64,000 bases of DNA from Candidatus Kaiserbacteria bacterium (GTDB lineage: Bacteria > Patescibacteriota > Minisyncoccia > Phycocordibacterales > UBA2100), in contig CAVYCR010000003.1 in NCBI GenBank assembly GCA_963767115.1, positions 27,559-91,558 of the forward strand, in the 5' to 3' direction. Made by a program: the position numbers and the translations under genes. Below the pieces are notes generated by a model. That model had not been told where the DNA came from and made no database searches. It saw only the letters and a list, made by a program, of their open reading frames with translations. Position 1 is the first letter of the stretch, and each line of letters begins with the position of its first letter. Of the stretch, positions 6,970 to 60,768 are shown piece by piece.

Positions 6970-6986
6970 TGATAAAATCAAAAATA

Positions 6987-7044
6987 AAATCTCAAATCTC
7001 AAAACTAAATAGAGAAACGGATTTGAGATTTGAATTTTGAGATG
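6987..7044. repeat. AT-rich heptad repeat / imperfect inverted repeat (AAATCTC units and the complement GATTTGAGATTTGA)
   Basis: Spacer between rpsM and rpsK. aaaatctcaaatctcaaaac ... ggatttgagatttgaattttgagatg. Confidence 0.7.
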
Positions 7045-7059
7045 TAAATTTGTAAACCT

Positions 7060-7494
7060 ATGGGAAAAAAACGAATCATTCGAAAATCAGGAGGAACAGT
7101 AGACGCCGGCATGAAGTCGCGCGCGCTTGCACGTGTGGCCAAAAAGAACATTACGGCAGGTACTTTGCATATTCATGCGACCTACAACAACACCAAGGTC
7201 CTGCTTGCCGACAAGGGAGGCAACACCATCGCGTGGTCTTCTTCGGGAGCATTGGGATTCTCAGGGGCTAAAAAGGGCACGCCGTTTGCAGCCGCTAAGG
7301 TCGGAGAGCTTGTAGGCGACAAGGCAAACATCATCGGTATGAAGGAGGTCGAGGTAATCATTCGCGGCGTAGGCTCGGGTCGTGAGTCGGCGCTCCGCGC
7401 TTTTGCAGGCAAGGGCATCGACATCATGCGTATCGCTGATGACACCCCGGTCCCACACAACGGTCCGCGTGCTCCCAAGCCCCGAAGAATCTAA
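7060..7494 (+). CDS. rpsK: 30S ribosomal protein S11
   Basis: 144-aa S11-like sequence (LHIHATYNNTKVLLADKGGNTIAWSSSG...). Confidence 0.92.
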   Translation: MGKKRIIRKSGGTVDAGMKSRALARVAKKNITAGTLHIHATYNNTKVLLADKGGNTIAWSSSGALGFSGAKKGTPFAAAKVGELVGDKANIIGMKEVEVIIRGVGSGRESALRAFAGKGIDIMRIADDTPVPHNGPRAPKPRRI

Positions 7495-7500
7495 AAGGTC

Positions 7501-7587
7501 AAATCTAAAATCTCAAAACTATGTTACAAACTTTTTCAAAATATATTAGCTTCTCAATTAGATTTGAGATTTAACTTTTGAGATTTA
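7501..7587. repeat. second copy of the AAATCTN heptad / inverted-repeat spacer element
   Basis: aaatcta aaatctc aaaacta ... gatttgagatttaacttttgagattt, between rpsK and rpsD. Confidence 0.7.
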
Positions 7588-7597
7588 AAATATTTTT

Positions 7598-11475: not shown

Positions 11476-12057
11476 ATGGCGACCAAATTTGCAGGTATCA
11501 AAACTGTCGCGGAATACCGACGCGGCGAGCTGGCGCGTGATATCTTGCGACTCATCGGCGCAGGGGTCGCTGTCGGAGCCACTATTGTTGCGCCTAATAC
11601 CGTGCAACTCATAGATTATTTAGATCCGAAAGGTCGCAATGAACGCAATCGAATCTGGAAAACTATCAAGTATCTCGAGGAAAAAGACCGTGTGACTTTC
11701 CAGGAGCGTGACGGCCATACGTACGTGCAACTTACTGCAACGGGTAGGCAGCAGCTCGATGAGGATGCTATTTGGGAACTTGCGATCGCGCGTCCGCGGC
11801 GCTGGGATCACAAGTGGCGCATCGTGATGTTTGATTTGCCGAGCAAGCGTGAGACCGCACGACAGGCTTTTCGACATAAGCTGGAGGATCTTGGCTTCAA
11901 GTTTTATCAGAGGTCGGTGTTTATTTTCCCGTATGAATGCGCGCAAGAGGTCAATACCGTCGCGCAGTGGTATGGCGTCGAGCAGTATGTGCGGTATATA
12001 GTTGCGACCGAGATCAACGACATGCGCCGTTTCGCGCAATTATTTGACTTGCTTTGA
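11476..12057 (+). CDS. putative transcriptional regulator: winged-helix N-domain plus PaaX_C/Cas2-like C-domain
   Basis: 193 aa. IWKTIKYLEEKDRVTFQERDGHTYVQLTATGRQQL is wHTH-like. WRIVMFDLPSKRETARQAFRHKLEDLGFKFYQRSVFIFP has the Cas2/PaaX_C-type beta-alpha-beta pattern. Confidence 0.5.
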   Translation: MATKFAGIKTVAEYRRGELARDILRLIGAGVAVGATIVAPNTVQLIDYLDPKGRNERNRIWKTIKYLEEKDRVTFQERDGHTYVQLTATGRQQLDEDAIWELAIARPRRWDHKWRIVMFDLPSKRETARQAFRHKLEDLGFKFYQRSVFIFPYECAQEVNTVAQWYGVEQYVRYIVATEINDMRRFAQLFDLL

Positions 12058-12180: not shown

Positions 12181-14040
12181 ATGGCAAAAATCATAGGCAT
12201 TGATTTGGGCACGACCAATTCTGCGATAGCAGTCGTCAAAGGCGGCGAGCCGGAAATCTTGGAAAACGCGGAGGGTGCGCGCACGACGCCTTCGATCGTC
12301 GCTACATCGAAGACTGGCGAGCGCCTTGTAGGCCTTCTTGCGAAGCGCCAGGCCGTCACCAATCCAAAGAACACAGTTTACCAGATCAAGCGCTTCATCG
12401 GCCACAACTTCGACGAGCCGCTCGTGCAGAAAGACCGCGGAGCCGTGCCTTTTGAGACACAAAAATCCGCTAACGGAGGCATCGAGGTCAAAATGGACGA
12501 CAAGTGGTATCGCCCCGAAGAGATTTCAGCGATGATCCTCCAGAAGCTCAAGGCAGATGCAGAGGCACGCCTCGGTGAGACCATCACGGAGGCAGTCATC
12601 ACGGTGCCCGCTTACTTCAATGATTCGCAACGCCAAGCCACCAAGGATGCCGGCAAGATCGCAGGCCTCGACGTGAAGCGCATCATCAACGAGCCGACCG
12701 CGGCTGCGCTTGCCTACGGCTTCAACAAGAAGAAGAACGAGAAAATCGTCGTCTTCGACTTCGGCGGCGGCACCTTCGATATCTCCGTGCTCGAAGTGGG
12801 CGACGATGTGATCGAGGTACGTTCGACCGACGGCGACGCGCACCTCGGCGGCAAGGACATCGACCAGAAGATCATGGATTGGATCGCAGAGGAGTTCAAG
12901 AAAGAAAGCGGCATCGACGTGCGCAATGACCCGCTCGGACGCCAGCGTCTCGACGAAGCCGCGGAGAAGGCCAAGATCGAACTCTCAACTGCGCTCGAAA
13001 GCGAGATCAACATCCCATTCATTACCTCGGACAGTTCCGGCCCGCGTCACTTGCTCGTGAAGCTTACACGCGGCAAGCTTGAAGAACTCACCCAGGAATT
13101 CGTCGATCGCGCGATGACCATCACCAAACGTGCGATGGAAGCATCACCCTTCAAGGTCAGTGATATCAACGAAGTCGTGCTTGTCGGAGGCCAGACTCGC
13201 ATGCCCGCTCTGCAGAAAGCAGTCGAGCAATTCTTCTCCCGCAAGCCCAACATGAGCGTCAACCCCGACGAGGTTGTGGCGCTTGGCGCCGCTATACAAG
13301 GCGGTATCTTGCAGGGTGATGTGAAAGACGTGCTCCTACTCGATGTGATCCCGCTTTCACTCGGTATCGAGACCATGGGCGGCGTCGCGACCAAGCTCAT
13401 CGAGCGCAACACGACCATCCCGACCTCGCGCTCGCAAACGTTCTCTACCGCTTCTGACAACCAACCCTCGGTCGAGATCCACGTCGTGCAAGGCGAACGC
13501 CCGATGGCTCCCGACAACAAATCACTTGGCCGTTTCAACCTCGACGGTATTCCGCCGGCGCCGCGCGGTATGCCCCAGGTCGAGGTTACCTTCGATATCG
13601 ACGCCAACGGCATACTTACCGTGAAGGCAAAAGACAAGACGACCAACAAAGAGCAGTCGATACGCATCGAGGGCTCCTCAGGCCTCTCAGATGCCGACAT
13701 CCAGAAAATGCGTGAAGACGCCGAGAAAAACGCAGACATCGACAAGCAAAAACACGAGCTTGTGGAAGCACAAAACGCAGCCGATCAAATTGTGTATGCG
13801 GCGGAGAAGGCACTCAAGGATCATGGCGACAAGGTCGGCGATGATATCAAGAAGGGCGTGCAGGAAAAGATCGATGCGCTCAAGACTGCGCGCAACGGCA
13901 GCGATCTTGCGGTTATCAAGTCAGCTTCTGAGGCACTTTCTACAGAGATGAGCAAAATCGGCGAGACCATGTCTAAGAACCAAGAATCGCCACAAGCATC
14001 GACCGACCAGTCTCCGCCTTCTGACAATAACCAACAATAA
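12181..14040 (+). CDS. dnaK: molecular chaperone DnaK (Hsp70)
   Basis: 619 aa with canonical Hsp70 motifs ([30 protein letters not shown]). Confidence 0.97.
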
Positions 14041-14053
14041 GCACAAGACCATC

Positions 14054-14131
14054 GACCTCGCCCAAAGAAATATTCTTTTGCGACCCGAACGATAGGCGGA
14101 AGCGCAAAAGAATATTTCTTTGGGCGAGGTC
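14054..14131. repeat. foldback element, type 1: perfect 29-bp arms and a 20-nt loop
   Basis: Arms 14054-14082 and 14103-14131 are exact reverse complements. The loop is acccgaacgataggcggaag. Confidence 0.85.
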
Positions 14132-14165: not shown

Positions 14166-15245
14166 ATGAAAGATTATTACGAAATCCTCGGCGTGCCGAA
14201 AGGTGCCAGCGAAGACGACATCAAGAAAGCATTCCGCAAGCTCGCGCAGAAGCATCACCCCGACAAGAAGGGAGGCGACGAAGCGAAGTTCAAGGAGGCG
14301 AGCGAGGCATATGCCGTGCTTTCTGACAAAAAGAAGCGCGCTGAGTATGACGCCTACGGCAAGACATTTGCTGGCCATTCGACAGGCTCAGGCCAAGGTG
14401 GTCCATTTGGCGGGTTCGATTTCTCAAATTTTACCAACGGGGGCGGACAAGGACAACAATTCGAATTCGACCTCGGAGATATATTTGGTGATATCTTCGG
14501 CGGAGGCAGCGCGCAACAACAAGCGCGAGGACGTGACGTCTCGATCGATATCGAGCTCTCGTTTCGCGAAAGCGTCTTTGGCACGGAGCGACGCGTCCTT
14601 GTATCTAAAATAGGTCTCTGTGATACCTGCAATGGCTCTGGTGCCAAGCCAGGCACGAAGATGACCCAATGCAAGACCTGCAACGGCAAAGGCGAGATCC
14701 GTGAGACACGCAATACATTCTTCGGTCAATTCACGTCGGCGCGTGTGTGCTCCACTTGTAATGGTCGCGGTGAAGTTCCCGAGACACCGTGTCCGACATG
14801 TCAGGGCAGAGGTGTAATGAAAAAGCAAGAAGAGATCCATATCCAAGTGCCATCAGGCGTCCAAGACGGCGAGATGATCCGCATGACAGGCCGTGGTGAA
14901 GTAGTACAAGCCGGCGGGGCAGGGGATCTCTATGTGAAGTTGCATGTCAAAAAAGATCCTGCATTTTCGCGCGAAGGAAATAACTTGCTGACGAATCTTT
15001 CGATCAAGCTTACCGACGCGCTTCTCGGAGGACAGTACACTATCCGGTCGCTCGACGGCGATGAGAAGATCAACGTCTCGCCCGGGGTCGCGCATGGCGA
15101 GATCATTCGCGTGCGCGGCAAAGGTGTGCCCACCGCCAGAAGCGGCCGCGGAGATCTTCTCGTGCGTATCGACATTGAATTCCCCAAGAAGCTTTCGCGC
15201 AGCGCGCGCGACCTCATCGAGAAGCTGCGTAGTGAAGGATTGTAG
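14166..15245 (+). CDS. dnaJ: molecular chaperone DnaJ (Hsp40)
   Basis: J-domain with HPD (KHHPDKK), a G/F-rich region, and four CxxCxGxG zinc-finger repeats. Confidence 0.95.
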
Positions 15246-15254
15246 CAGGTGACA

Positions 15255-15362
15255 TATCCCAGCTGCGGCTGTTTTGCCGTCTACGCAGGCGCGGCGGCGC
15301 CGAGTCCGAGCGCTGGGCGAGCACGCCCAGACAGCGACGGCAAAACAGCCGCAGCTGGGATA
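15255..15362. repeat. foldback element, type 2: perfect 27-bp arms and a 54-nt core with two internal hairpins
   Basis: Arms 15255-15281 and 15336-15362 are exact reverse complements. The core is shared with 55975..56094. Confidence 0.85.
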
Positions 15363-15387
15363 CGCCAAGGAAAACGTAGGTTATACT

Positions 15388-27250: not shown

Positions 27251-27365
27251 GCGTATCCTCTCGTTACATATTTTTGAAGCCGAGGACCGAACCCGCAGAC
27301 CGCGAAGCGGGCGTGAGGGCGCTTGCGTCCCGCAGGATTCAAAAATATGTAACGAGAGGATACGC
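27251..27365. repeat. foldback element: perfect 28-bp arms and a 59-nt GC-rich core
   Basis: Arms 27251-27278 and 27338-27365 are exact reverse complements, between ftsW and murG. Confidence 0.8.
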
Positions 27366-35047: not shown

Positions 35048-35659
35048 TTATGCGTGTCTCCAAGGAATTTCAAACTGCTCAAATTCCGGCAAGAGTTTGC
35101 GGCCATAGAGAAGTCGAGAAATTACTTCTGCGTGCGAGAGTGCGCCGGTAAGCGCGTTGTGCGGGTGCGGCTCTTCGGGAATGCCGCAATAAGTGAGGAT
35201 GGTATCGAGGTCGAGCGCGCTTCGCTTATGCCGCACTGGCGGCTGGAGGCCGTGAGTGACCATATGCATATATGCGAGCGTGTGCGTGTCGATCGTACGG
35301 AAGGCAAATGGCCAATCAGTATGCCCTGCCCGCTCCGACGCTTGGCGCAAGAAGTCTCTGTCAAAGGACACATTCTGGCCGGCAAGCGTACGCTCATCGA
35401 GGCCTTCGCTCCAGTGTAGAAATGCGTGGGTGAGATCGGCTTCAGATTGTTTGGCGGCATCGGTTATCTGGGCATGAGTGAATCCGTTTACCTTGAGCGC
35501 CTCAGGCATGATGTGGGCGCCTTCCCATACCCTACACTCCTCATAAAAGCGATTGGATGGGTGGGCAAGGTCGAGCGCACCGACACTCACGATGGAGTGT
35601 TTGCTAGGATCTGTGCCTGAAGCTTCGACGTCGACGACGAGCATGGCGGAATTGTACAC
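35048..35659 (-). CDS. DnaQ-like DEDD 3'-5' exonuclease
   Basis: ExoI VVDVEASG, ExoII NVSFDRDFL, ExoIII HNALTGA. Separated from the Nudix gene by 3 nt. Confidence 0.75.
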   Translation of the reverse strand: MYNSAMLVVDVEASGTDPSKHSIVSVGALDLAHPSNRFYEECRVWEGAHIMPEALKVNGFTHAQITDAAKQSEADLTHAFLHWSEGLDERTLAGQNVSFDRDFLRQASERAGHTDWPFAFRTIDTHTLAYMHMVTHGLQPPVRHKRSALDLDTILTYCGIPEEPHPHNALTGALSHAEVISRLLYGRKLLPEFEQFEIPWRHA

Positions 35660-35696: not shown

Positions 35697-35772
35697 CGAG
35701 AACGGCTGGGGGAATCTTTTTGCGCTTCCGCCTGTCGTTCGGGTCGCAAAAAGATTCCCCCAGCCGTTCTCG
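35697..35772. repeat. foldback element, type 1 (second copy): perfect 28-bp arms and a 20-nt loop
   Basis: Arms 35697-35724 and 35745-35772. The loop cttccgcctgtcgttcgggt is the reverse complement (19/20) of the loop at 14083-14102. Confidence 0.85.
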
Positions 35773-35788
35773 ACATCTACCCTATTAG

Positions 35789-36172
35789 TTAGTTCAAACC
35801 TTTGCAATTCTTAGCAGCCTTATACCCTGCTGCCTGAGCTGCGGCCTCGTCCTTGAACCACACTTGCTTCCCTATTGGGATACTTTCTGCAGCTGCGCAC
35901 CAGGGGAAATAATAGACAGTGCCGGTGTCAGAGCCGACGTATTGCCCACCAAGGAAAATGCCTTGCGGCTCTTGTAAAACAGGTGCTTGGATGATCGAAA
36001 CCGGCGGTTCGACCTCTTCTTGAGCCGAGAGCCTACCCAAGCCAAATGCGCAGAATGTGCTTAGAAATATGAGTATTATAGTGCCCCACTGCCCTACCAA
36101 GCCCTCGAAGGATTCCACGAATACAAACTTGCATTTGTGCCATAATTCCTGTATATTCTCATGACTCCTCAT
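35789..36172 (-). CDS. membrane-anchored protein with a C-terminal sunset-type Cys motif
   Basis: One TM helix. C-terminus [37 protein letters not shown]. Confidence 0.55.
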
Positions 36173-36486: not shown

Positions 36487-36610
36487 GGCAAGCCCGCCTC
36501 GCGGGATTTTGTTTTTTTGGGTCGTTCTTTTTCTGCTGAAAAAGAACTCTGTTTCGCGCCGCCGCGCTGCAAAGACCCCAAAAAACAAAATCCCGCGAGG
36601 CGGGCTTGCC
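36487..36610. terminator. mirror-image twin terminators forming a 37-bp-arm foldback
   Basis: Arm 36487-36523 (gcccgcctcgcggg + attttgttttttt) and its inverted copy 36574-36610 (1 mismatch) lie between convergent rpmA and rplI. The 50-nt centre has its own 9-bp hairpin. Confidence 0.75.
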
Positions 36611-41900: not shown

Positions 41901-44780
41901 TCACGCTCCGGTGATGACGAAATTCACCAAGCGATTAGGGACAATGATAACACGCGCAACACTCTTCCCCTCCAAGCGCGCAGCGACATTTTCTCGCGCA
42001 GCTGCTTCCACGATAGCTTTATCCGCGTCGGTCTCGATCTCGATCTCGCCGCGCACCTTGCCGTTGATCTGCACTACGACAGTCGATGTCTTGCCTTTCA
42101 TCTTCGAGATGTCCGCCGTAGGCCACGCCACAGAGCCAATGTACTCTTTCTTGCCCGCTGCTTCCCAGAGTTCTGCTGAGAGATGCGGGGCAAAAGGCGC
42201 AAGAAGCTGAAGAAACGTCTTGTACGCGGCAGGCGGTATCGAAGGAAGCGTCTCAAACTCATTGAGAAGGATCATCAGGGCAGAAACCGCGGTGTTCATC
42301 TTCAAGGCCTCAATATCATCGCCGACTTTTTGTATCGTTTGGTTGAGGAGCATCTCGGACTTTTCGGGAAGCGGCACGGAGGCATCCGTCTTCAAATCGT
42401 TCACGCGCTCGAGGAAGCGCCGGATGCCGATGATATTCGTCGTGCTCCACGGCTTCATGCTCTCGAGCGGGCCCATAAACATCTCGTACATGCGCACCGC
42501 GTCAGCGCCGTAGAGCGCCGAGCATTCGTCGGGATTCACGACATTACCTTTCGATTTTGACATTTTGGAACCGTCTTCGGCGAGAATCGTACCTTGGTGG
42601 CGAAGCTTGAGGAACGGCTCGCCAAAAGCTACGTAGCCGAGCTTCTGCAACACTTTGGTGAAGAAGCGCGCATACATGAGATGCAGCACCGTGTGCTCCG
42701 CACCACCCATATAGAGATCGACAGGCAGCCACTTGTCGAGCGCTTCGCGCGAAGCAAACTCCGTATCGTTGTGCGGGTCGGCAAAACGGAAGTAGTACCA
42801 GCTTGAACACACGAAGGTATCCATCGTGTCGACCTCGGGCGTCCAGCCTTTGCCGAAAATAGTTTCAGTACGATCTTTGAGTTCCTTCGACTGGCCCAAA
42901 GGCGAAACTCCCGTGGGCTTGAATTCTACATCGGTAGGCAAAAGCCACGGTAAATGTTCTTCGGGAATCGGATGTGCAGCACCTTGCGGATCGTAGACGA
43001 TCGGAATCGGCGCGCCCCAATAGCGCTGGCGCGAAATGAGCCAGTCGCGGAGTTTATATGTCGTCTTACGTCGACCGAATTTGTCGGTGATCAGCTTCTT
43101 TGCTTCAGGTGTCTCGAGGCGATTGAACTCTCCCGAGCCGGTAAGAGTGCCATTGCCCGTAAATAAAACATCCTCGCCATTGAGAGAGCGCAAAGCGTGC
43201 TGATGCGTGTCAGGAGTCAGGAACTTTGCTAACTCAGCTTTGGAAAGCCATAAAACATCATGGATCGCGTTTTCAGTGTCTGCAACGTCTTCTCGCGCAT
43301 CGTCCTCGAGCTCGAGATAAATAACGTGCGCATGCGCGTTGCGATTCGTCTTTTTTGGGACATGGTAAAATTTCCCGTGGACTACGCCAAAATCTTTGAC
43401 GTATTTGGCGTGTATGAATCCCGTCTCTTCACGAATTTCCATCTTGGCAGCTTCTTCCGGTGTCTGGCCCGTTTCGATACCACCCGTGATGAACGTACCC
43501 CATGCCACTTGTTTCCATTTGAGCGCGATATATTTTTCTTCAGACCAATGCTTCACGATCGCAATGATCGCTTCACGATGGTCAAACGGCTCGCCTTCTC
43601 TGATCTTGCCGGGTTCGGTCGTTTGCTCGTATGTCGGCTCGAGGACTTCCCTGATCGGCAGATCAAATTTCTTGGCAAACTGATAGTCGCGCTCGTCGTG
43701 CGCGGGCACCGCCATGATGGCACCGGTGCCGTAGCTACCGAGAACATAATCGGCAATATACATCGGGATCTTTTCACCGGTCGCGGGATTGACGGCAACG
43801 ACCCCTTTCAATTCAACACCCGTCTTATCCTTCGCGTCCGCCTGTCGATCAAGATCGGTTTTATTCTTGGTTGCTTCGACATATGCAGCGATCTCGTCGT
43901 TGTTTTGAAAGACCGTCCCGTGTCCGAGGGTAAAATCCACCCATGCGTGCTCCGGCGCAAGCACGAGATACGTCGCGCCGTAGAGCGTGTCGGGGCGCGT
44001 AGTGAAGACCGTGATGCGCGGCTTCGTGCCGTCGGTATCAACGCGATCGTTGAGCAGAGCATCGCCGAAATCGAGGTGGAAATCGATCTCCGCGCCCTCG
44101 CTTCTGCCAATCCAGTTGCGCTGGTTGGTCTTGGTCGACTCGGGCCAGTCAACGTGATCGAGATCATCGACGAGCGCGTCGGCAAAATCCGTGATCTTGA
44201 AGAACCATTGCTCGAGATCCTTCTGTATCACTTTGGCGCCGGAGCGCTCCGCGGTACCGTCGGGCAACACCTGCTCGTTGGCGAGCACCGTCTGATCGAC
44301 CGGGTCCCAGTTGACCTTGGCCTTCTTTTTATATGCGAGGCCGTTCTTGTAGAGCGTGAGGAAAAACCACTGCGTCCATCGGTAATACTCCGGCGTGTGC
44401 GTGCCGATCTCGCGCGGCCAGTCATACGAGAGCCCGAGGCCTTTCATTTGCGATTTGAATGTCTCGATCGCTTTAGCAGTCGTCTCTATCGGCGGCACGC
44501 CTGTCTTCACAGCGTAATTCTCTGCAGGCAGGCCGAAGGCATCCCACCCCATCGGGTGCAGGACGTTGAAGCCCTTCGCACGCTTGAAGCGACTGACGAT
44601 GTCGGTTGCCGTATACCCTTCTACGTGACCTACATGCAAGCCCGCGCCGGAGGGATACGGGAACATGTCGAGGATATAGCTCTTTGGAGATGCGGAATCG
44701 TCGGATACGGCGAAAGTCTTTTCTTCTTCCCATCGCTTCTGCCACTTCTTCTCGATCTTCTTATGATCGTAATTCTTCAT
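41901..44780 (-). CDS. leuS: leucine--tRNA ligase carrying an internal Nudix-domain insertion
   Basis: 959 aa with HVGH (HIGH), CP1 editing domain and KMSKS. A Nudix box GGIETGQTPEEAAKMEIREETGF sits at aa 433-455. Confidence 0.95.
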   Translation of the reverse strand: MKNYDHKKIEKKWQKRWEEEKTFAVSDDSASPKSYILDMFPYPSGAGLHVGHVEGYTATDIVSRFKRAKGFNVLHPMGWDAFGLPAENYAVKTGVPPIETTAKAIETFKSQMKGLGLSYDWPREIGTHTPEYYRWTQWFFLTLYKNGLAYKKKAKVNWDPVDQTVLANEQVLPDGTAERSGAKVIQKDLEQWFFKITDFADALVDDLDHVDWPESTKTNQRNWIGRSEGAEIDFHLDFGDALLNDRVDTDGTKPRITVFTTRPDTLYGATYLVLAPEHAWVDFTLGHGTVFQNNDEIAAYVEATKNKTDLDRQADAKDKTGVELKGVVAVNPATGEKIPMYIADYVLGSYGTGAIMAVPAHDERDYQFAKKFDLPIREVLEPTYEQTTEPGKIREGEPFDHREAIIAIVKHWSEEKYIALKWKQVAWGTFITGGIETGQTPEEAAKMEIREETGFIHAKYVKDFGVVHGKFYHVPKKTNRNAHAHVIYLELEDDAREDVADTENAIHDVLWLSKAELAKFLTPDTHQHALRSLNGEDVLFTGNGTLTGSGEFNRLETPEAKKLITDKFGRRKTTYKLRDWLISRQRYWGAPIPIVYDPQGAAHPIPEEHLPWLLPTDVEFKPTGVSPLGQSKELKDRTETIFGKGWTPEVDTMDTFVCSSWYYFRFADPHNDTEFASREALDKWLPVDLYMGGAEHTVLHLMYARFFTKVLQKLGYVAFGEPFLKLRHQGTILAEDGSKMSKSKGNVVNPDECSALYGADAVRMYEMFMGPLESMKPWSTTNIIGIRRFLERVNDLKTDASVPLPEKSEMLLNQTIQKVGDDIEALKMNTAVSALMILLNEFETLPSIPPAAYKTFLQLLAPFAPHLSAELWEAAGKKEYIGSVAWPTADISKMKGKTSTVVVQINGKVRGEIEIETDADKAIVEAAARENVAARLEGKSVARVIIVPNRLVNFVITGA

Positions 44781-54715: not shown

Positions 54716-54760
54716 AAAATAGCTTGTAGGTTTTAGCTTGTAGCTTGTAGGAATGCAAAT

Positions 54761-55615: not shown

Positions 55616-55685
55616 TAGCTTCTAGCTTCTAGCTTCTAGCTTCTGGGGAATTTCTAATCCCTAGCGGCTAGCCACTAGAAGCTAG
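55616..55685. repeat. 4 perfect TAGCTTC heptads plus a downstream complementary CTAGAAGCTAG
   Basis: 55616-55643 is (tagcttc)x4. 55675-55685 can pair with it. Lies in the spacer between atpE and atpF. Confidence 0.8.
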
Positions 55686-55974: not shown

Positions 55975-56094
55975 GGCGCGCACTGGCGAGGTAGGTATTT
56001 TGCCGGCTACGCAGGCCCGACGGGGCCGAGTCCGAGCGCTGGGCTAGCAAGCCCAGATAGCGACGGCAAAATACCTACCTCGCCAGTGCGCGCC
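55975..56094. repeat. foldback element, type 2 (second copy): 31-bp arms with the conserved core
   Basis: Arms 55975-56005 and 56064-56094 are exact reverse complements. The core aligns with 15271-15345 at 67/74, with two compensatory pair changes. Confidence 0.85.
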
Positions 56095-56102
56095 TAACAA
56101 CC

Positions 56103-56872
56103 TTAATGCGCCGCGTGAGGATCCGTGATGGCGAGCTTGATAAAGAAAAGCGTGAGGAGCGCGAAGACCGCGGCTTGGACGAAACCGACGAATATTTCAA
56201 AGGCCATGAGGGGCGCCGGCACGATGTACGGCGCGAAATAGGTCGCAACCGCGATAAGGACTTCGCCCGCAAAAATGTTGCCGAAGAGACGAAAAGAGAA
56301 TGAGACGAAGCGCGAAAGCTCGGAGACAAATTCGATGATGCCGATCGATGAAGTTGAGCAAGCGGTTGCCGAGTCCCTCTCCGCGGAAGGTGAAGAATTT
56401 GCCCGCGTAGCGTCCAGAAGCCTACGGCGATGATGCCGAAGACTTCTATAGAGATCACCGAGATGATCGCAAGCGTGAGCGTCACATTGAGGTCGGTGTT
56501 GACGCTGCGCAGAAGCGGCGTGAAGGTACCGTCAGCAGCATAGAAGCCGACTGAGCCGATGCCCGGCGTGAATTCGATCAGGTTGGACGTCGCGATGAAG
56601 AGGAAGATCGTGATGAGAAGCGGGAAAGCGCGTCGCGACCATTTTTCGTCCTCGAGCGTCTCCTTGATGAAGTCCTGCATGTAGATCACGAGCGATTCGA
56701 GGAGTGCTTGGAAGCGGCCCGGCACGTACGAGAGCCTGCGTCGCACCACGATCGCTGCTATGATGAGGATAGTGATCGCGACCCAGCTCGTGAGCAGGGT
56801 GTTGGTGATAGGAATCCCCCACAATGTGCCTATCTGCTCGGGCGCGAGCATGACTGAAATTCCGCTTTGCAT
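56103..56872 (-). CDS. atpB: Fo ATP synthase a subunit, interrupted by two +1 frameshifts (near 56417-56420 and 56350-56353)
   Basis: The N-terminal frame is good to ...IEVFGIIAVGF. The next frame reads GRYAGKFFTFRGEGLGNRLLNF. The third frame reads IGIIEFVSELSRFVSFSFRLFGNIFAGEVL...DPHAAH*, stopping at 56103. The Ser/Arg-rich tail of the track ORF (to 56075) is out of frame. Confidence 0.8.
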
Positions 56873-58465: not shown

Positions 58466-58537
58466 GGCCCTATCGTCTAACGGTTAGGACGCCGGCTTCT
58501 CAAGCCGTTAATCGGGGTTCGATTCCCCGTAGGGTCA
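58466..58537 (+). tRNA. tRNA-Glu (anticodon CUC); CCA not encoded
   Basis: Manual cloverleaf. Acceptor GGCCCTA/TAGGGTC (one G-U pair), D-arm GTCTAACGGTTAGGAC, anticodon loop TTCTCAA, T-arm CGGGG-TTCGATT-CCCCG, discriminator A. Confidence 0.85.
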
Positions 58538-58585
58538 CAAAAATAACGAGACCGATGCATGTCATCGGGCGAATCTATTTTTGTA

Positions 58586-58714
58586 GGCCCTACGGGGAAT
58601 CGAAAGACGGAGGCGAGGTCCCCTGCAAGCTTGCAGGGCGCCCAGTCAGGGTCGTGGAATTTTTGGAGCGACGGCGACAAAAATATCCCTGACCGATCCC
58701 CGTAGGGTCACAAA
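58586..58714. repeat. structured ~130-bp segment bounded by an inverted and a direct copy of the tRNA-Glu 3' end
   Basis: 58586-58604 ggccctacggggaatcgaa is inverted relative to the tRNA T-arm/acceptor. 58694-58714 cgatccccgtagggtcacaaa is direct. Perfect 18-bp palindrome ccctgcaagcttgcaggg at 58621-58638. Confidence 0.75.
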
Positions 58715-60721: not shown

Positions 60722-60740
60722 GTAATGAATTGGATTTTCT

Positions 60741-60768
60741 GAAAGCTGAAACCTGACAGCTGAAAGCT
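60741..60768. repeat. four tandem heptads gaaagct gaaacct gacagct gaaagct
   Basis: Spacer between ftsI and murF. Confidence 0.7.

Follow-up and report, generated by a model that had tools for sequence, protein, structure and literature searches.

The window (the whole stretch of DNA analysed, 64,000 nt) contained grpE, a PaaX/Cas2-like gene, dnaK, dnaJ, genes for ribosomal proteins and aminoacyl-tRNA synthetases, the dcw cluster and the ATP synthase operon. Relatives of its DnaJ and AtpB proteins were annotated as Candidatus Kaiserbacteria or Paceibacterota, with the nearest public DnaJ relatives at 83–84 % identity, which places the organism within the CPR/Patescibacteria. No transposase, reverse transcriptase, recombinase or HUH nuclease was detected among the approximately 39 window ORFs scanned against Pfam. 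The foldback elements of the window, and the genes on either side of the hairpin under study, were located as follows.

12181–14040, plus strand: dnaK, the gene 5' of type-1 copy 1
14054–14131, plus strand: type-1 foldback copy 1 (left arm 14054–14082, loop 14083–14102, right arm 14103–14131)
14166–15245, plus strand: dnaJ, the gene 3' of type-1 copy 1
15250–15367, unstranded: type-2 foldback A, 4 nt past the dnaJ stop codon, with locus-specific outer arms
27251–27365, unstranded: type-3 foldback, between ftsW and murG
35697–35772, minus strand: type-1 foldback copy 2 (arms 35697–35724 and 35745–35772, perfect over 28 bp)
36487–36610, unstranded: type-4 foldback, abutting the rplI stop codon
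55975–56094, unstranded: type-2 foldback B, in the atpB-atpE spacer, with 31-bp perfect arms
58518–58604, plus strand: tRNA-Glu(CTC) palindrome, not of type 1, whose left arm is the tRNA 3' end

Copy 1 begins 13 nt past the dnaK stop codon and leaves 34 nt before the dnaJ ATG. Its two 29-bp arms are exact complements and enclose a 20-nt loop, ACCCGAACGATAGGCGGAAG. Read on the minus strand, the loop of copy 2 is ACCCGAACGACAGGCGGAAG, with 19/20 identity to that of copy 1, and the stem-proximal closing pairs TTTTGCG/CGCAAAA are common to both copies. Copy 2 is located between a 127-aa ORF (35789–36172, minus strand) and an RNase T-like gene (35048–35659, minus strand). An earlier note, made from the sequence alone, had described both elements, the second as inverted and in a minus-strand gene context; the exact complementarity of the copy 1 arms bore out its 29-bp arms, loop and coordinates, and the description of copy 2 was confirmed. 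Both copies lie 13–16 nt past a stop codon and are sense to the flanking genes. With up to three mismatches, the loop pattern occurred at only these two window sites, against a chance expectation of 0.01.

RNA folding energies of the two copies were −53 and −58 kcal/mol (z=−11.6 and −12.1) and DNA folding energies were −36 and −38.5 kcal/mol. Perfect hairpins of at least 20 bp numbered six in the 64-kb window, with stems of 27–31 bp, while first-order Markov simulations (n=30) produced none and had a longest stem of 15 bp. No T-run follows either type-1 hairpin of the window and a terminator scan called neither, in agreement with the proposal of the earlier note that copy 1 is not a canonical terminator; instead, the 5' arm itself contains a T-run and the core is followed by an A-run, whichever strand is read. 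At the gathering threshold, tRNA was the sole Rfam match in the window. Permissive searches gave generic miRNA-precursor hairpins far under threshold and no specific family for the foldbacks. A resemblance of the type-2 core to the raiA-hairpin extended over 12 nt and scored 13.9 bits, against a cut-off of 43.7, and was attributed to chance.

Several further features of the window were recorded. A 193-aa protein with a PaaX-type Cas2-like domain is encoded at 11476–12057, between grpE and dnaK, an interval that is the usual place of hrcA-type regulators. The leucyl-tRNA synthetase (41901–44780, minus strand) carries a NUDIX domain (residues 426–524) beside its editing domain. Tandem heptamers (TAGCTTG, TAGCTTC and CTGAAAG, approximately four copies each) are located between genes in the ATP synthase and mur operons (54720–54750, 55616–55644 and 60739–60768), and 14-nt repeats with inverted repeats in the rpsM-rpsK-rpsD spacers (6974–7054 and 7488–7591). 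Compared with 11 Paceibacterota homologues, atpB (56075–56872, minus strand) has two frame changes near residues 160–185, and the window copy would be either a pseudogene or the product of assembly indel errors. Its true stop codon is a TAA approximately 8 nt before the type-2B hairpin, the apparent ORF end being a frameshift artefact; a public atpB gene call (P0121) keeps the shifted frame.

Distribution of the type-1 loop

A metagenome collection was scanned with the loop alone, the polymorphic base being left free. The scan returned 23 loci, 15 of them hairpins that represent 13 distinct loci and have unrelated or diverged stems of 23–30 bp. The remaining eight were not hairpins and were present in approximately the number expected by chance, three of the eight falling in one conserved ThDP-enzyme coding motif. 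The earlier note had proposed a repeated foldback element in which a conserved loop is combined with a variable perfect stem. Further copies were indeed found, with 13 additional distinct hairpin loci in the metagenome scan, and the pattern stood across 15 copies, the invariance of the loop being partly a matter of ascertainment since copies were searched for by their loop. In the alignment of the 15 copies, 92.6 % of stem cells were paired and 26 of 27 pairs had changes on both sides; shuffles and slid registers came nowhere near the observed pairing.

The claim that the arms are unrelated was upheld in part. Similarity between the outer arms of copies 1 and 2 was not significant (P=0.55, local alignment against shuffles), but a weak consensus was present in the 5' arm across copies, running from G-rich through A/G-rich sequence to a T-run and then CG. 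Because of this consensus, the arms of the type-1 family are described as highly diverged rather than strictly unrelated. Among the analysed sequences, no arm had a second match with up to four mismatches, which ruled out arms that act as guides or are copies of other loci. No genome had two type-1 copies with shared arms: recent transposition of a copy-paste kind has left no visible trace, or else the arms are replaced in some other way.

The exact 34-nt core had no match in GTDB species representatives, and neither the loop nor the type-2 core had a match in IMG/VR. Phage and plasmid collections gave merely chance-level partial matches to the loop with its closing pairs, and no vector that might carry the loop between phyla was found in the viral, phage and plasmid collections. 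A covariance model of type 1 recovered its training copies and no diverged copy in 772 kb searched, and zero copies in 545 kb of Kaiserbacteria/Paceibacterota relatives. A literature search on the loop sequence gave no match, and keyword searches gave no description of such elements in CPR bacteria. Type-1 hairpins are apparently an undescribed family of small palindromic insertions.

Type-1 copies were located both in spacers and in frame inside genes. The in-frame copies were found in lepA, in an rsmI-like methyltransferase gene (approximately 36 residues between two subdomains), in lhr, in grpE (in the disordered N-terminal part of GrpE, the gene belonging to a dnaK-grpE-dnaJ-hspR operon) and in two GT4 glycosyltransferase genes. 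The loop is translated as RDPNDRRKR in LepA and as ETRTKGGS in Lhr, and these different frames indicate that the constraint is on nucleic acid and not on peptide. Hosts of the lepA and rsmI copies were Paceibacterota-like (GC 0.53–0.57). Those of the other in-frame copies were high-GC (0.67–0.72) Actinomycetota, the Lhr host being placed by homologue names and the CAJDUA01 MAG presumably belonging there, as judged from operon structure. The presence of an identical 20-nt loop in two phyla is not accounted for by vertical descent.

Relative to host genes, the loop was sense in about nine of the 15 copies, antisense in four (L045, L052, L053 and L036) and ambiguous in two. The earlier note had observed that the loop reads in transcript sense at both window loci; this did not extend to a general rule, given these antisense copies and an inversion of the loop between rsmI orthologues. 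A replication-strand orientation rule was also rejected, there being no GC-skew switch and types 1 and 2 being in conflict in orientation. A heat-shock regulon element was considered from a second copy that follows dnaK in L053 and was rejected, as other copies flank unrelated genes.

Filled sites, empty sites and orthologous hairpins

About 30 related dnaK-dnaJ spacers had no hairpin, including those of 25 GTDB-representative orthologues and of the 84 %-identical L060, and several of these hairpin-free spacers contained an ordinary terminator instead. The earlier note had recognized that the element might be simply a vertically inherited terminator; with orthologous spacers lacking it, this comparison indicates that the dnaK-dnaJ hairpin is not one. 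The same note had looked to such spacers to define an empty site. Exact empty sites were obtained for other copies and none was definable for the dnaK-dnaJ copy.

In four comparisons of filled and empty sites, the indel was the complete hairpin, approximately 72–80 nt. The lepA copy (L038/L058) lies at a surface turn of the G domain, where LepA reads NW EYGT[[24 protein letters not shown]]GSYVLNLIDTPGH. The protein of L038 has 24 extra residues, and exactly 24 residues (72 nt) are absent from a 92 %-identical LepA allele in a Paceibacterota MAG (P0373/L074). With the junction marked by a slash, the empty site is TAC AAG GAG/CAG GAT and the filled site is TAT GGA ACG/72 nt/CAG GAT. The lhr helicase copy of Solirubrobacterales L043 adds 27 residues in an interdomain linker and is absent from 86–88 %-identical homologues. 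A copy between hisS and an RNase H-like gene in L050 is absent in L058 and L074. For the type-2A hairpin, L059 provides an empty site that reads TAG/ggaaaacgtagg, compared with TAG cagg, 118 nt and aggaaaacgtagg in the window.

In the lepA, type-2A and lhr comparisons, neither arm was present at the empty site. An origin of the arms as an inverted duplication of the target, which looked attractive because of the tRNA-Glu palindrome and the terminator-like arm of type 4 (both described below), was excluded for type 1, type 2A and lhr, since the arms are missing from the empty sites. Target-site duplication at the lepA and type-2A junctions amounted to at most a 3-nt AGG/GGA repeat, possibly due to chance, and there was none at the remaining copies.

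Orthologous hairpins were then compared for arms and apex. At rsmI, the copies in L049, L046 and L045 are orthologues, as their flanks align on both sides. Their arms differ by roughly 20–35 % through compensated changes, and the loop has one orientation in L049 and L046 and is inverted in L045. The atpB-atpE spacer is empty in L062 and L068 and holds a type-3-like hairpin with homologous arms in L061 and L065; the two elements match at 73 of 87 positions, only after one is reverse-complemented. A decayed version of this hairpin is present in the same spacer of L063. In the window, the spacer instead has a type-2 core, flanked by arms similar to the L061 arms (P=0.0035, from a set of several tests). 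The lhr arms of L043, L071 and L072 are homologous up to the closing CCCGAG, and their loops differ. These alignments show that orthologous copies inherit their arms and that the apex can be inverted or replaced in situ.

The Solirubrobacterales Lhr interdomain linker was a hot spot for translated hairpins in a comparison of L071–L073 and the Lhr homologues P0241–P0360. Of 120 Lhr homologues retrieved, 53 had a linker that could be delimited, approximately 17 being long with diverse tips and approximately 36 short. The long linkers have 20–30 extra residues, with homologous arms and diverse tips, and the short allele retains just an 8-bp outer palindrome (CCGCGGGT/ACCCGCGG).

Other foldbacks and tRNA palindromes

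Foldbacks of types 2–4 in the window have Y-shaped cores of 50–62 nt inside arms of 27–37 bp. The conserved, Y-shaped core of type 2A is closed by TTTTGCCGTC/GACGGCAAAA, a pair found both in the type-2 elements of the window and in the type-4 element of L038. Cores A and B of type 2 are approximately 89 % identical, with compensatory changes in the inner helix (GGCGC/GCGCC versus GGCCC/GGGCC) and unrelated arms. A core related to type 3 is present in the atpB-atpE spacer of L061 and, inverted, in L065, and the type-4 core recurs at L038 8267–8378 and L048 3292–3407. Each arm of type 4 is a canonical terminator (CCCGC-CTC-GCGGG followed by the T-run ATTTTGTTTTTT) directly after the rplI stop codon, and the element may supply or duplicate the rplI terminator. 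Type-4 and type-2-like cores, together with a fifth type, recur in L038, L048 and L052. The arm/core junction consists of a T-run and then GC(C)G in all types.

Several types occurred together in hairpin-rich genomes, and their sister genomes were without any of them. Six long hairpins are present in the 64 kb of the window, and three types in approximately 14 kb of the L038/L058 genome. L074 has none in 21.8 kb that is syntenic with three L038/L058 hairpins, and L059 has none in 14 kb. In 545 kb of Kaiserbacteria/Paceibacterota relatives, long perfect hairpins were rare and mostly terminator-like, with short loops, and none had these cores; close relatives were without all four additional foldbacks of the window. 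The joint presence or absence of types suggests a genome-level factor, either a shared mobilizing activity or a missing anti-palindrome activity. L074 (GCA_035500505.1) has approximately 75–83 % nucleotide identity to the hairpin-rich Ga0075522/Ga0209483 population (L038/L058), and this pairing is suited to tracing the gene or genes responsible.

A related phenomenon, palindrome growth, was seen at tRNA genes. The palindrome that follows the tRNA-Glu gene (58466–58604 in the window for gene and palindrome together) has an AAAAA-hairpin-TTTTT centre, and on its right side the last 21 nt of the tRNA are repeated in inverted orientation. The number of tRNA nucleotides inside the palindrome is 21 in the window, four in L063 (8750–8995) and zero in both L065 and L068. 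In the window, the additional bases form an insertion that precedes a conserved AGRCGGAG block. A second tRNA case, a perfect 29-bp version at a tRNA-Gln gene, was found in Paceibacterota (L031 180–320). The tRNA palindromes look like the result of stepwise growth by inverted-copy insertion, which indicates that inverted copies are templated at hairpins in these lineages. Perfect arms and flipped loops could plausibly arise in this way, but the origin of the type-1 arms is left unexplained.

Interpretation and comparison with known systems

The dnaK-dnaJ hairpin is probably, with confidence that is modest, a non-autonomous selfish palindromic insertion element whose behaviour is closest to that of Rickettsia palindromic elements (RPEs) and MITEs and in which the apex is the conserved signal. 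The conserved apex, G-ACCCGAACGAYAGGCGGAAG-C with a few closing pairs, would be a cis-acting signal at the end of a hairpin extruded as single-stranded DNA or RNA, where a putative trans-acting factor would recognize it. The stem would be required for pairing alone. Template switching within the palindrome during replication or repair could keep stems near-perfect and flip loops, and would be the process by which the palindrome next to tRNA-Glu has grown into the tRNA. Any effect on dnaK-dnaJ expression would be at most a generic by-product of a 29-bp stem, acting as an exonuclease barrier or an RNase III substrate, and not the cause of loop conservation.

A host cis-regulatory or structural RNA, such as an mRNA 3'-end stabilizer, an RNase III site or a protein-binding hairpin, was the first alternative, with a host protein reading the loop while the stems covary. 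This explanation is rather unlikely but retains some weight. The strong stem covariation, the position of both window copies in sense orientation 13–16 nt past a stop codon, and the retention of the loop in three rsmI orthologues despite arm differences of roughly 20–35 % are all as it would predict. Relative to loop sense, G.T outnumbered A.C mismatches by 12:2 in the main helix (P=0.013), which hints at a strand-specific functional single strand, although the ratio was 22:17 and not significant once outer predicted pairs were included. However, the loop is antisense in L045, L052, L053 and L036 and is flipped between orthologues, copies occur inside unrelated coding genes in three reading contexts, close relatives have no hairpin at the same sites and there were zero Rfam family matches. 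The perfect stems of the window contain no G.U pair in approximately 175 bp, and stems nearly free of G.U pairs are unusual for RNA helices and typical of DNA palindromes. Three observations are easier to reconcile with a palindrome in DNA than with a helix in RNA, namely the near-absence of wobble pairs in the window stems, the flipped loops and the occurrence of coding insertions in both orientations. The check suggested in the earlier note for complementarity of the loop to rRNA or tRNA was negative: against the E. coli rrnH operon (16S, 23S and 5S rRNA and tRNAs, used as a proxy) no complementarity or similarity was found and all cores scored within shuffles, and duplex energy with the other cores and the window tRNA-Glu was not in excess. 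Mimicry or targeting of rRNA or tRNA was rejected on these scores against the E. coli proxy.

An unlikely, more speculative possibility is that the mobile unit is smaller than the hairpin. An apical cassette of approximately 20–34 nt, with counterparts in types 2–5, might invade or replace the tips of existing chromosomal hairpins by a hairpin-directed template-switch or single-strand mechanism, and would be common to Patescibacteria and Actinomycetota, which would imply DNA traffic between episymbionts and their possible hosts. If true, mobility of this kind would be new: the target would be set by structure and not by sequence, and the element would have no ends of its own.

A host signal at the DNA level, recognized on either strand as a cruciform or single-stranded DNA and serving in DNA uptake, replication restart or priming, chromosome organization or as a self-marker, would be in keeping with a loop found in either orientation and flipped in situ, in coding and non-coding DNA, with identical sequence in distant phyla and between arms of DNA-like perfection. 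It is decidedly unlikely in view of the low density (two per 64 kb) and of sister genomes that are entirely without the element; no associated gene is known, and the occurrence of several unrelated cores together suggests parasites and not one host signal.

The hairpins could alternatively be pure template-switch (quasi-palindrome) by-products under weak anti-palindrome surveillance, small hairpins growing arms and the shared loop being a hitch-hiking accident. Perfect arms, flipped loops, the growth of a palindrome into the tRNA-Glu gene by inverted copying and the second tRNA case in L031 illustrate such a process. It is very unlikely to account for type 1, since in lepA, type 2A and lhr the empty site contains neither arm, so that the arms were not copied from the flanks, and since an identical 20-nt loop is present in hairpins at no fewer than 13 loci in two phyla compared with approximately eight non-hairpin chance matches in the whole collection. 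That the hairpin arose as an artefact during assembly or library preparation (a chimeric fold-back read or a hairpin adapter) is barely conceivable: two atpB frame shifts suggest some assembly indel errors, but Logan assembled the same run independently (L001) and the hairpin there is 100 % identical, and the family occurs in many JGI, ENA and NCBI assemblies of different projects, in frame and in diverged orthologues.

If the interpretation as a selfish palindromic element is correct, streamlined CPR genomes, usually deemed repeat-poor, carry lineage-specific bursts of tiny palindromic parasites. These would remodel spacers of core operons (dnaK-dnaJ, the ATP synthase operon and the dcw cluster) and add 24–36 residues to essential proteins such as LepA and RsmI. 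A fixed tip on a free stem, its flipping and its presence in two phyla offer a handle on how hairpin DNA is recognized and copied and on gene flow between Patescibacteria and Actinomycetota. Perfect 30-bp palindromes also mislead assemblies and gene callers, with ORF starts extended through hairpins and extra peptide segments.

Among known systems, the terminal hairpins of parvoviruses exist in flip and flop forms, and inversion between short inverted repeats can occur by strand switching. Type 1 may be likened to these in having an apex in two orientations between identical arms, as may types 2–4 with T- or Y-shaped cores in a long stem. It differs in that the hairpins are internal to the chromosome and not the ends of a replicon, and no Rep-like nickase is known. 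MITEs (Correia, ERIC and Nezha) resemble type 1 as small, non-coding, multi-copy hairpins with presence/absence polymorphism. MITEs have conserved terminal inverted repeats, target-site duplications and a parent IS, whereas the termini of type 1 are its least conserved part, target-site duplications were not seen and it has no known parent IS.

TIGR-Tas systems, known from CPR bacteria and phages, form tandem arrays beside a Tas (Nop-domain) gene, with two variable spacers between box C/D motifs in the loop (PMC12045711). They share with type 1 variable palindromic stems, conserved loop motifs and occurrence in Patescibacteria (PMC12045711). A TIGR-Tas array was rejected for type 1, as the copies are solitary with an invariant loop, the neighbours are housekeeping genes and there is no adjacent Tas gene. 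REP/BIME-RAYT systems and the ends of IS200/IS605 elements are comparable to type 1 in that a hairpin is read by its shape and a few bases, probably as single-stranded DNA, with strand-level orientation and stems that may covary. REPs are extragenic, high-copy sequences of 20–40 nt with a 5' GTAG or CGTC tag (PMC3733652). Type 1 is 72–80 nt long, has neither tag at either end, occurs twice per 64 kb and is also intragenic, and no Y1/HUH gene was seen in the window.

RPEs are short palindromic repeats, folding into a long hairpin, that are located between genes and, unusually often, in frame at tolerated positions of housekeeping genes unrelated to one another, with a patchy distribution and without a transposase of their own (PMC10969869). 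Type 1 is alike in forming hairpin palindromes in spacers and in frame in housekeeping genes, patchily and without its own transposase. RPE families show full-length similarity over approximately 100–150 bp and a conserved peptide, whereas in type 1 similarity is confined to the apex and a few closing pairs. By this comparison, which was made with RPEs by description, type 1 is shorter (72–80 nt), has locus-specific stems and an apex in varied frames and orientations, and occurs in Paceibacterota and Actinomycetota and not in Rickettsia. Type 1 fails the defining features of RPE families, MITEs, REPs and terminators and is a member of none of them; for this reason it is filed as a variant and not as a member.
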